From: Escherichia coli
GTDB lineage: Bacteria > Pseudomonadota > Gammaproteobacteria > Enterobacterales > Enterobacteriaceae
Assembly: GCF_003018115.1 (NCBI RefSeq)
Contig: NZ_CP027457.1
DNA length: 64,000 nucleotides
Strand: one strand, 5' to 3'
Below the pieces are notes generated by a model, which was given only the letters and a program-made list of their open reading frames with translations, searched no databases and had not been told where the DNA came from. The position numbers and the translations under genes were made by a program. Below are positions 53,658 to 55,729 of the stretch, piece by piece; the stretch's first letter is position 1, and each line of letters opens with the position of its first letter.

Positions 53658-54239
53658 ATGAATTTTTTAGCTCACCTGCATTTAGCCCATCTCGCGGAAA
53701 GCTCGCTTTCCGGCAATTTGCTGGCTGATTTCGTACGCGGAAATCCTGAAGAAAGTTTTCCGCCCGACGTCGTGGCTGGCATTCATATGCATCGACGTAT
53801 CGACGTATTGACTGACAATCTGCCGGAAGTCCGCGAAGCACGGGAGTGGTTTCGTAGTGAAACTCGCCGCGTTGCGCCTATTACGCTGGATGTCATGTGG
53901 GATCACTTTCTTTCCCGTCACTGGTCGCAGCTGTCGCCGGACTTTCCGCTACAGGAATTTGTTTGTTATGCCCGAGAACAAGTGATAACGATTTTGCCGG
54001 ACTCACCGCCACGCTTTATCAACCTGAACAACTACTTATGGTCAGAGCAGTGGCTGGTGCGCTATCGCGATATGGATTTCATCCAGAACGTGTTAAATGG
54101 CATGGCAAGCCGTCGCCCACGTCTGGATGCCCTGCGTGACTCCTGGTACGATTTAAACGCCCATTATGCCGCCCTCGAAACCCGCTTCTGGCAGTTTTAT
54201 CCGCGGATGATGGCGCAGGCGTCACGCAAGGCGCTCTGA
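53658..54239 (+). CDS. acpH: acyl carrier protein phosphodiesterase AcpH (YajB)
   Basis: 193-aa [35 protein letters not shown]... Confidence 0.9.
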
Positions 54240-54259
54240 AACGTCAAACTCCGGCGTCA

Positions 54260-55729
54260 CTACTTTTTAGCATTCGCATCCAACGGGGCGGCATAACAAC
54301 GGTAAGAAAAACATTCGCTGGAATGATTGGCGATATCTTTAAAGTTGCTTTCAGCAACCCCCTCGAACATGAGTACCGTTCTGGACAACTCTCCGTTGTC
54401 ATTTATATGTGGAAAATCAAATTGTGTACTGAATCGCCATACATCTGTCTTTTCTGGCTCGCTGTTCACAGAGATACGTCGATGGAAGCCTCCTCCTGAA
54501 AACGTGCGCCAGAACAATTGTTGATCAAAATCTTGTAATATCGCACACTTGGATGCTATTTGTTGTAGTAAACCTGCATACCGTGGACTGCCATCACGAG
54601 CAACATTATACAAACACTGACTAAAAGCATCGAACAAACAATAGATGTGATCACTAGTGAAAAAAGGTCTTAATTTTTTTTGTTCTTCGTCGCTGTAATC
54701 CAGGAGCATCTCATTGATTTCTTCCTGTGAGAATTTTAAGACAAAATTATCTTCAGGATTTGTTTCTTTGTTGTTTTTTTCAATATTCTTCTCCTCAATG
54801 CTATTCGCATTTTGTTTCGCAATTATTTCCGAATTTTTTTTCGCAGTTTTTTCCGCAGTTTTTTTCGCAATTTCTTCTGCAATTCTTTCCCGAGTTTTAA
54901 ATTTTAAACTGACACCATCGATGTCAACCGGTGTTGTTTTAAGATCTCTCTGCGCGTCTTTCAAATTTAACTCATAGAGTTTGGGCAGTTTATCTGCAGA
55001 TACGTATCCGGATGAAGAAATCTGGTGTGTACGCAGGGGCGGCTGTTCACAAAGCATCGAGGTTATATCGTCTTTAAACTCTTTTACATTAAACTTCTCG
55101 GCATTAACCTTCCCTGTTATAAACCCCGCATCGGTAATTTTCTTCTCTAATTGTTTTGTACGTTTAGAATAATAAGCGTTGTTATCATAAAACTTTTCAA
55201 GAAGAGCCCACTCCTCAAGTTGCTTTATGTGATTTTTCAACTGTTGATGATCTATTTTATATTCATGTGTACTAGAATCATTTTGGTTGCAGGAGTTACA
55301 GATTTTTAAGCATAATTTTCCATCAGATTTATTATCTATGGTATCAGTGAAAATATAGGACACTTCAATACTCTGCCCGTACTTATCAGTCATCTCATAT
55401 GACCATTGCCCCGTTCGTTTCGCATTCTTAATGAATTCGATGGACTCTGCAGGACAACCATGAAGAATAGGCAGAATTTTATCAGGATGCTTAATGAGTA
55501 AAATTATTATATTTACAATGTTTGAAAAGAAATTTTTGCTATTTTTTATTTCATCGATTTTTTCCGCTGAAATGTTTACTAAGTTTTCATTTCCGCAAAT
55601 GAAAAGCGATTTGCCATGGGTGCTTTTTTTAAATTGTTCTTCTGTTTTAGAAAAGACATCCTCCTTAAAAGGTGGCAACTCAGCACCAGTAATAAACGGT
55701 TTCAATAAATTCGAATTTGAAATTGTCAT
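54260..55729 (-). CDS. accessory protein of unknown function (489 aa), absent from the K-12 backbone
   Basis: Uninterrupted 489-aa ORF with Shine-Dalgarno GGAG 7 nt upstream of the ATG. Visibly AT-rich. N-terminus MTISNSNLLKPFITG is Ser/Asn/Thr-rich with no acidic residue in the first 16 aa. Central Lys/Glu-rich repetitive segment RIAEEIAKKTAEKTAKKNSEIIAKQNANSIEEKNIEKNNKE. C-terminal ~150 aa of ordinary composition. I recognise no family. Confidence 0.75.
   Translation of the reverse strand: MTISNSNLLKPFITGAELPPFKEDVFSKTEEQFKKSTHGKSLFICGNENLVNISAEKIDEIKNSKNFFSNIVNIIILLIKHPDKILPILHGCPAESIEFIKNAKRTGQWSYEMTDKYGQSIEVSYIFTDTIDNKSDGKLCLKICNSCNQNDSSTHEYKIDHQQLKNHIKQLEEWALLEKFYDNNAYYSKRTKQLEKKITDAGFITGKVNAEKFNVKEFKDDITSMLCEQPPLRTHQISSSGYVSADKLPKLYELNLKDAQRDLKTTPVDIDGVSLKFKTRERIAEEIAKKTAEKTAKKNSEIIAKQNANSIEEKNIEKNNKETNPEDNFVLKFSQEEINEMLLDYSDEEQKKLRPFFTSDHIYCLFDAFSQCLYNVARDGSPRYAGLLQQIASKCAILQDFDQQLFWRTFSGGGFHRRISVNSEPEKTDVWRFSTQFDFPHINDNGELSRTVLMFEGVAESNFKDIANHSSECFSYRCYAAPLDANAKK

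Follow-up and report, generated by a model that had tools for sequence, protein, structure and literature searches.

The junction at which acpH and an orphan gene converge in the analysed 64,000-nucleotide stretch of Escherichia coli DNA (hereafter the window) is the acpH-proximal edge of a 1.67-kb single-gene islet, lodged in the 4-bp acpH/malZ spacer of about one-fifth of E. coli. The explanation that we favour, and regard as probable on the whole, is that the islet occupies a site which was ancestrally devoid of a terminator, that the transcripts of the two genes overlap at their 3' ends at low flux, and that the islet buffers acpH from malZ.

On the plus strand, the open reading frame list places acpH at 53658-54239 (193 aa; stop codon TGA at 54237-54239). 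Its product matches the Pfam family PF04336 (ACP_PD) over its full length (E = 2.5e-59), as expected for an ACP phosphodiesterase, and the name acpH is also used in the RefSeq annotation of matching genomes. The adjacent orphan ORF lies on the minus strand at 54260-55729 (489 aa), its TAG stop being read as CTA on the plus strand at 54260-54262, and the two 3' ends converge on a spacer of exactly 20 nt (54240-54259) that shows no significant secondary structure. The same 20-bp spacing was found in all 7 of the other insert-bearing loci examined, with 3 variable positions within the spacer across insert-bearing loci. In 1127 genomes a 91-nt junction query was covered to at least 80%; five insert-bearing matches were sampled, and each of them spans exactly 91 nt, with no net length change. 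Among the 13 convergent pairs of the window, which were crudely called, the median gap is 51 bp (range -11 to 352 bp); the 20-bp gap is the second shortest, and is thus short, not extreme.

A canonical stem-loop followed by a U-tract cannot physically fit in 20 nt, so that geometry by itself all but dictates the lack of a terminator within the gap. Folding of 101-111 nt around the gap gave, on either strand, structures no better than those of shuffled sequences (z = -0.33 and +0.44). A consensus terminator scan returned 4 terminator-like sites in the region versus 2.7 +/- 1.7 expected from shuffles, with plus-strand matches at 54241-54257, 54315-54333 and 54384-54400 and zero candidates on the minus strand at the junction. 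The best candidate for the gap, 54241-54257, has a 5-pair stem including one G-U pair and a 7-nt loop; the T5 run at 54264-54268 starts 6 nt past this stem, inside the last two lysine codons of the orphan. It therefore lacks the G+C-rich stem-loop directly followed by a U-tract that defines an intrinsic terminator. Taken as a whole, 54241-54268 (plus strand) is a weak, non-canonical hairpin of 5-6 pairs with G-U pairing and a terminal T5 run, not above chance (best local fold -7 kcal/mol, z = -0.57). In other alleles the stem is broken by a G>T change at 54243, and the run is T6 in most alleles as against T5 here. Such a hairpin with its U5-6 run might stop some acpH transcripts. With no significant fold and scan matches at chance level, there is no effective terminator between the two genes, which is what the definition of a convergent excludon calls for. 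An Rfam scan of 53500-56100 retrieved zero families at E values up to 1. The 11-12-nt complementarity between 54163-74 and 54285-96 was considered as a selected, insert-linked structure and dismissed, as it is broken in 2 of 6 other insert-bearing loci and looks like chance or haplotype.

These data bear on the possibility that there is little overlap between the transcripts, with acpH transcription ending at 54241-54268, 54315-54343 or 54384-54410 and that of the orphan being ended promptly by Rho after the translation stop. The three plus-strand matches, and the T6 run that follows the first of them in most alleles, speak for this arrangement, which we nevertheless consider unlikely: the sites occur at the shuffle level and have weak folds (-7 kcal/mol, z from -0.5 to -1.1), other alleles disrupt the stem of the first one, the minus strand offers no candidate, and RNA read through from the orphan is rich in G over its first 130 nt (C/G 0.63-0.96), making a poor Rho substrate. 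In favour of our preferred explanation, stretches with a mild excess of C over G, compatible with Rho loading, lie 90-170 nt beyond the stop codon of acpH and 130-230 nt beyond that of the orphan.

The limits of the islet were set by BLAST against a K-12-like locus. Homology to the empty K-12-type site stops at 54244/54245, 5 nt beyond the end of acpH, and picks up again at 55914/55915, the stop of malZ (maltodextrin glucosidase; 55915-57732, minus strand; from the ORF and the RefSeq annotation of matching genomes), which is co-directional with the orphan and upstream of it. Relative to the empty acpH-4 bp-malZ site, an AT-rich segment of 1670 bp is thus present at 54245-55914, with a junction ambiguity of 1 nt. 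Its GC content is 0.30-0.41, that of the flanks about 0.53. There is also a consistent difference at the end of acpH, whose final sense codon and stop read CTC TGA in insert-bearing genomes and TTA/TTG TAA in those with the empty site.

In the empty state, represented by K-12-like E. coli, another E. coli, E. albertii and two further Escherichia species, acpH and malZ converge across a 4-bp gap without a terminator; the K-12-type junction, when scanned, was likewise free of terminator-like signals. In other genera the acpH 3' end also converges tightly with other partners (gaps -4 to 45 bp). Tight convergence without a terminator is hence an ancestral property of the site and not a product of the insertion, and the acpH/orphan junction is an unremarkable version of an arrangement already known, acpH having already faced malZ at this site. 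The original prediction had described a convergent pair with a 20-bp gap and no terminator in it, as the sequence, the scan and the folding all confirm, and had placed the insertion boundary essentially at the acpH stop. Comparison with the K-12 malZ-acpH spacer upholds this boundary, the homology break lying 5 nt beyond the stop, and shows that the tight packing does not result from the insertion, since the empty site is tighter still. The practical value of this finding is mainly one of caution, in that a terminator-less junction beside an inserted gene mimics a product of the insertion.

Of the 5426 complete E. coli genomes, 1126 (~21%), O157:H7 among them, contain the islet, in single copy and always between acpH and malZ; it is missing from the E. 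albertii locus and from three further Escherichia loci that the acpH scan retrieved. Its atypical GC content and its presence/absence polymorphism at a fixed backbone site are those of a horizontally acquired islet in the compositional sense. It does not conform to a mobile island, an insertion sequence or a transposon: a repeat search found neither target-site duplication nor terminal inverted repeats at its boundaries, its single ORF is devoid of any domain and no integrase or transposase is encoded, a tRNA scan revealed no tRNA anchor within 10 kb, and there were no copies on true plasmids or phages. Two tblastn matches labelled as plasmids proved to be 4.9-Mb chromosomes mis-filed as such. 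Neither tblastx nor blastn gave a match supporting an origin as a remnant of the tsaA-like or DUF3999 genes that occupy the interval in other genera, and an apparent third state of the locus in HS-02 consists of 10% GC homopolymer junk, most likely an assembly artefact. Compared with K-12, O157:H7 carries O-islands/S-loops, small strain-specific islets that are AT-rich, polymorphic and set between conserved backbone genes. The acpH-malZ islet resembles them in these respects and in encoding a hypothetical protein, but differs in having a single gene without mobility genes, repeats or a tRNA anchor, and in not being O157-specific (~21% of E. coli, and Shigella dysenteriae).

At the malZ-proximal end of the islet, 31-82 nt past the malZ stop, lies a strong interrupted hairpin (55833-55884, minus strand; inverted repeat I5), with a folding energy of -31.2 kcal/mol (z = -6.07) here and -31.4 kcal/mol in the O157-type allele. 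It is a stable G+C-rich stem-loop, left unflagged by the simple terminator scan on account of its internal loop. The tail that follows it on the minus strand, AGUUUGUUAAAUAUUUGU (55832-55815), has 5 U in its first 8 nt, interrupted, and is U-rich on the malZ strand only. The hairpin occurs in single copy and in insert-bearing genomes only, the K-12-type site being without it. With this hairpin the islet probably provides malZ with an intrinsic terminator or an attenuator.

Expression was assessed from a strand-specific RNA-seq study of O157:H7 EDL933 under 11 conditions, whose reads carry the accession GEO GSE48199 and in which acpH is Z0503 and the orphan is Z0502 (RPKM; PMC4048457 Table S4). 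Values across the conditions are 46, 17, 7, 70, 25, 0, 8, 11, 6, 10 and 1 for malZ, 8, 3, 1, 8, 5, 0, 1, 2, 4, 2 and 1 for the orphan, and 13, 5, 1, 11, 9, 3, 5, 11, 10, 7 and 4 for acpH (PMC4048457 Table S4). The orphan (RPKM 0-8) and acpH (RPKM 1-13) are therefore both weakly expressed, and orphan transcription is above background in most conditions (PMC4048457 Table S2). The orphan follows malZ (r = 0.91) at about 0.1-0.2 of its level; in 8 of 10 conditions the orphan/malZ ratio lies at 0.11-0.20, a gene-level result from one study that would fit 80-90% termination at the hairpin. It also correlates positively with acpH (Pearson +0.80, Spearman +0.84), with the low power of 11 integer-rounded, low RPKM values from a single study, where a common normalisation or incomplete strand specificity could have raised the coefficients. 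The supplements searched contained no published 3'-end, TSS or Ribo-seq values for acpH, malZ, Z0502 or ECs0454.

Excludons, neighbouring genes whose transcription overlaps, first described in Listeria, and the overlapping or bidirectional terminators of E. coli share a convergent topology with possible antisense 3' overlap, interference and RNase III processing. Classical excludons combine a long antisense transcript with functionally opposed genes and reciprocal expression, and a bidirectional terminator is a single hairpin between A- and U-tracts. The acpH/orphan pair shares with these systems the convergent topology and the potential for antisense 3' overlap; its 20-bp gap has neither the classical-excludon nor the bidirectional-terminator features, and its expression across the 11 EDL933 conditions was not reciprocal. 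The closest counterpart is the ancestral pair itself: in the ExcludonFinder map of K-12 MG1655, malZ-acpH is one of the 165 convergent excludons that were present in 50% or more of the 58 transcriptomes, a coverage-based call that is silent on physiological effect (PMC12288877). Both junctions involve the same site, the same acpH 3' end and a convergence within a few bp without an intergenic terminator, an arrangement in which transcripts must end inside the opposite gene. They differ in the partner (malZ versus the inserted orphan), in the gap (4 versus 20 bp), in the strong hairpin that now stands between malZ and the junction, and in that here expression lacks reciprocity and the overlap is predicted.

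The original prediction held that read-through from either gene could generate antisense RNA over the other, which is plausible in principle given the K-12 listing of malZ-acpH (PMC12288877), and that expression of the inserted gene could thereby interfere with acpH, for which the EDL933 data, with a positive correlation and low levels of both transcripts, provide no support. A true regulatory excludon, with the orphan and acpH mutually repressive through 3' overlap, by way of colliding polymerases and of duplexes cut by RNase III, so that induction of one gene lowers the other, would accord with two convergent genes lying 20 bp apart without a terminator, with the cataloguing of the ancestral pair as a convergent excludon, and with the shorter intergenic distances of excludon pairs compared with non-excludon pairs (PMC12288877). 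We find it improbable in view of the positive correlation (r = 0.80 over 11 conditions) and of RPKM values reaching only 8 for the orphan and 13 for acpH, a weak expression of both genes that should make collisions rare. Moreover, the spacer is conserved in length only, and 79% of E. coli are without the orphan yet manage acpH.

The orphan corresponds to ECs_0454 of O157:H7 Sakai by annotation and to Z0502 of EDL933 by gene order, both annotated as a hypothetical protein, and is found only in E. coli/Shigella, including Shigella dysenteriae. Searches of Pfam, PADLOC, NCBIfam, PHROGs and PDB sequences yielded sub-threshold noise only, tblastn found nothing in phages, and phmmer against 1.84 billion representatives recovered the orphan's own cluster, the sole full-length one, and fragments of that cluster. 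The AlphaFold2 model, built on a 15-sequence alignment, is of poor confidence (pLDDT 40.4). An in-frame tandem repeat of 12 bp in about 7 copies (54804-54888, minus strand; A-E/K-K-T/I units; TRF and repeat families D1-D6) accounts for the allele lengths of 473, 481, 485, 489 and 493 aa, and the 8-aa gap of the O157-type allele falls exactly within it. A GGAG Shine-Dalgarno motif was read at 55737-55740 (minus strand), 7 nt upstream of the ATG (55729-55727), and the scan recognised no sigma-70 promoter-like site upstream of the orphan on its own strand; a non-consensus promoter is possible. The orphan may also be an inert or decaying passenger, whose junction with acpH is of no biological consequence and merely marks where foreign DNA landed. 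This is conceivable, though we doubt it. The want of a homolog, of a domain and of a confident fold would fit, as would the very low expression without a promoter-like site and the relaxed constraint (dN/dS between allele groups 0.53, versus 0.04-0.11 for acpH). Against it, dN/dS is still below 1, the 1470-nt ORF (36% GC) remains open in every allele seen and varies in length by multiples of 12 nt only, the ribosome-binding site is good, and transcription exceeds background in most EDL933 conditions.

According to the explanation that we favour, acpH has no terminator of its own in Escherichia and ancestrally met malZ head-on, until the islet replaced malZ with the orphan as its convergent partner. 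Most transcription of the orphan would probably come from malZ, 10-20% of whose transcription leaks past the islet hairpin on this view. Polymerases leaving the orphan would produce RNA antisense to acpH, and acpH read-through RNA antisense to the orphan. The 3' ends presumably arise within the opposite gene, through Rho, at weak hairpins or by exonucleolytic trimming, so that overlapping 3' ends at low flux are to be expected. As the hairpin lies just past malZ, antisense flux into acpH is probably lower than in K-12; the net effect of the islet would be to buffer acpH from malZ transcription with no new interference, and the insertion probably loosens the malZ-acpH coupling without establishing another. 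The locus offers a natural allelic series for the physiological effect of catalogued excludons, the 4-bp malZ/acpH state of K-12 standing against the 20-bp orphan/acpH state with its hairpin in ~21% of strains, and it points to a widespread, E. coli-restricted ORFan with a predicted protein of 489 aa.

A far more speculative proposal, to which we attach very little probability, is that the islet is an add-on to the maltose regulon, the orphan being expressed only through the leaky malZ terminator and its terminator-less 3' end causing antisense transcription of acpH to be graded by maltodextrin, unlike in K-12. If true, turnover of the ACP prosthetic group would respond to maltodextrin via antisense pressure on acpH. 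This proposal casts the orphan as a fast-evolving, E. coli-specific protein, with a dN/dS of about 0.5 and an in-frame VNTR.

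The window is a piece of E. coli chromosome with the gene order yajC, tgt, queA (-), acpH (+), a 489-aa ORF (-), malZ (-) and proY (-). The full-length acpH gene (53658-54239, + strand), encoding an ACP phosphodiesterase (Pfam ACP_PD, E = 2.5e-59), ends in the sequence with TGA at 54237-54239 and faces the 489-aa ORF (54260-55729, - strand), hereafter the orphan, whose TAG stop reads CTA on the + strand at 54260-54262. The original prediction of convergent stops 20 bp apart was borne out, the spacer (54240-54259) being 20 nt, and the spacing was identical in all seven other insert-bearing loci examined. 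A 91-nt junction query was matched with at least 80% coverage in 1127 genomes, and its span in the record was exactly 91 nt in each of the 5 insert-bearing rows sampled. With convergent gaps in the window ranging from -11 to 352 bp (median 51; 13 crudely called pairs), the 20-bp gap is short, yet not unique.

Neither of the gap-centred folds (101-111 nt; -27.5 and -31.3 kcal/mol) was more stable than dinucleotide shuffles (z = -0.33 and +0.44, respectively). Over the whole 2.8-kb region, the consensus scan yielded 4 terminator-like sites against 2.7 +/- 1.7 in shuffles, none of them on the orphan strand. At the gap itself, a weak terminator-like stem-loop was seen on the acpH strand (+) at 54241-54257, with 5 pairs, including one G-U, a 7-nt loop, and a T5 run (54264-54268) starting 6 nt past the stem; its local fold reaches -7 kcal/mol (z = -0.57), and a G>T change breaks the stem in other alleles. 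With folds at shuffle level and this single weak site, the absence of a terminator between the two stops, as first noticed, was confirmed. A canonical stem-loop followed by a U-tract is, in any case, too large for 20 nt. Separately, a long-range perfect complement of 11-12 nt flanks the junction (54163-54174, TTATGCCGCCC; 54285-54296, GGGCGGCATAA), and the 150-nt + strand fold containing it has z = -1.96. Its acpH arm needs an Asp>Ala codon change, present in most insert-bearing loci. We rejected it as a selected structure since the pairing is broken in two of six other insert-bearing loci (L002 and L088), and it probably reflects chance or haplotype.

A 1951-nt query covering the region matched 5424 of 5426 complete E. 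coli genomes; its middle part was present in 1126, the others showing the acpH and malZ ends only. Comparison with the K-12 malZ-acpH spacer showed that, in a K-12-like genome, the acpH and malZ stops are separated by 4 nt (...GCG TTA TAA AACG TTA GTT...). Homology of the window to this site extends up to 54244 and is found again from 55915, one T being ambiguous, which gives the window an additional 1670 bp (54245-55914). At its 3' end (54234-54239), acpH reads CTC TGA, the final sense codon plus the stop, in all eight insert-bearing sequences examined (the window and 7 loci), versus TTA or TTG TAA in the eight empty-site loci, which include E. albertii and other Escherichia species. This represents three silent changes within 6 nt exactly at the junction, while the preceding 62 nt show no such cluster. 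The boundary proposed at the acpH stop was thus upheld, in that the novel sequence effectively starts within the last two acpH codons. The insert has a GC content of 0.30-0.41, versus approximately 0.53 in its flanks, and contains one ORF; no direct or inverted repeats were found at its ends, and no tRNA within 10 kb. It does not qualify as a mobile element on any structural criterion and represents a compositional islet; in O157:H7 genome records, its gene carries the annotation hypothetical protein.

An AcpH scan with one genome per species provided 80 loci. The arrangement acpH-4 bp-malZ, devoid of the orphan, was found in E. albertii, in two further Escherichia species and in another E. 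coli. Hence, the genus originally had the 4-bp state, and the islet was gained later, within E. coli. The content of the acpH-malZ interval varies across the Enterobacteriaceae: Salmonella, Citrobacter and Enterobacter harbor a co-directional AhpC/TSA peroxiredoxin gene; a DUF3999 gene converges on acpH at 0-3 bp in Phytobacter and Kosakonia and at 45 bp in one Enterobacter sp.; and the malZ-acpH gap is -4 bp in Siccibacter, 10 bp in Pseudenterobacter and 38 bp in a Leclercia MAG. No terminator-like signal was found at the K-12-type junction. As the acpH 3' end abuts such varied partners, a tight, terminator-less 3' end recurs as a property of acpH and is not made by the orphan. The peroxiredoxin gene, of 200 aa, occupies the interval in many genera of the family, and in further genera the distance between acpH and malZ is 0.8-4.9 kb, or a search of the 5-kb flank yielded no malZ.

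The orphan had no significant match in Pfam, PADLOC, NCBIfam, PHROGs or PDB sequences, and phmmer, run exhaustively against 1.84 billion representatives, retrieved nothing beyond its own cluster and fragments thereof. All named full-length homologs belong to E. coli or Shigella dysenteriae (a 'MULTISPECIES [Enterobacteriaceae]' label is attached to one cluster) and fall into two allele groups with ~98% and ~90% identity to the window protein. No phage or true plasmid copies were found; the PLSDB entries NZ_CP134663.1 and NZ_CP141089.1 are 4.9-Mb E. coli chromosomes filed as plasmids, which produce spurious plasmid matches for chromosomal genes. The AlphaFold2 pLDDT is 40. An in-frame 12-bp tandem repeat (54804-54888, - strand; ~7 copies of A-E/K-K-T/I units) accounts for the allele lengths of 473, 481, 485, 489 and 493 aa, all of which are multiples of 4 aa apart, and the 8 aa missing from the O157-type allele fall precisely within it. 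The dN/dS between allele groups is 0.53, compared with 0.04-0.11 for acpH, which indicates relaxed, though not absent, constraint. Given these 4-aa steps, this dN/dS and a frame open over 489 codons at 36% GC, the orphan is very probably coding, and would represent a fast-evolving, lineage-restricted protein. Its last 89 codons (54260-54526) show a compositional step, with a GC of 0.44 versus 0.31-0.34 in the first 200 codons; no similarity of this 3' end to anything in related loci was found.

The islet contains a strong interrupted hairpin (55833-55884, - strand; -31.2 kcal/mol, z = -6.07), located in the stretch from the malZ stop (55915) to the orphan start (55729) and followed on the malZ/orphan strand by AGUUUGUUAAAUAUUUGU; no U-run follows it on the opposite strand. 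It is single copy, kept in the O157-type allele (-31.4 kcal/mol) and confined to insert-bearing genomes, so that the predicted malZ terminator comes from the islet, which probably supplies malZ with an intrinsic terminator that the K-12 allele does not have. On the orphan strand, no sigma-70-like promoter was recognized in the region ahead of the gene, and a GGAG lies 7 nt upstream of its ATG. In E. coli HS-02 (L090, NZ_CP172818.1), a 1.1-kb homopolymer-rich sequence of 10% GC (locus positions 1441-2552) stands in place of the islet, resembling it only in the hairpin-proximal 50 nt, and the acpH ORF is lengthened to 208 aa; this replacement most likely arose through an error in assembly or base calling.

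The orphan is named ECs_0454 in O157:H7 Sakai and, judging from gene order, corresponds in EDL933 to Z0502, a hypothetical protein gene between Z0501 (malZ) and Z0503 (acpH). Strand-specific RNA-seq of EDL933 under 11 conditions gave RPKM values of 46, 17, 7, 70, 25, 0, 8, 11, 6, 10 and 1 for malZ, 8, 3, 1, 8, 5, 0, 1, 2, 4, 2 and 1 for the orphan, and 13, 5, 1, 11, 9, 3, 5, 11, 10, 7 and 4 for acpH (PMC4048457 Table S4). Orphan expression, although low, exceeds the study background in most conditions (PMC4048457 Table S2), and it co-varies with that of malZ (r = 0.91; ratio 0.11-0.20 in 8 of 10 conditions). This is consistent with leakage past the malZ hairpin as the main source of orphan transcription. 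The correlation with acpH was positive and not reciprocal (r = 0.80), with no sign of mutual exclusion over the 11 conditions. Both readings are suggestive only, because the values are small integers from one study.

ExcludonFinder reported 165 convergent excludons in MG1655, defined by transcription units that overlap in 50% or more of 58 transcriptomes, and malZ-acpH is one of them (PMC12288877). This documented overlap for the empty allele makes the general idea of read-through reasonable, and the acpH/orphan junction is like the convergent terminator-less E. coli pairs now mapped by the hundred. As no reciprocity was found, acpH/orphan, known here from sequence and gene-level RPKM, is not classed as an excludon. 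We propose that malZ transcription would mostly halt at the hairpin, the remainder crossing the translated orphan and, past its stop codon, entering acpH antisense, while read-through from acpH would enter the orphan antisense, with the 3' ends of both transcripts being made within the opposite gene. Downstream of the acpH stop, the C/G ratio rises to 1.3-1.75 (90-170 nt from the stop); downstream of the orphan stop it is <1 over the first 130 nt, then 1.26-1.47. This base composition lends mild support to a role of Rho in 3'-end formation. In K-12, all malZ transcription would reach acpH directly, and the islet should therefore lower, not raise, the antisense load on acpH. The suggestion that expression of the orphan could interfere with acpH, and vice versa, is plausible but unsupported, and it probably points in the wrong direction.
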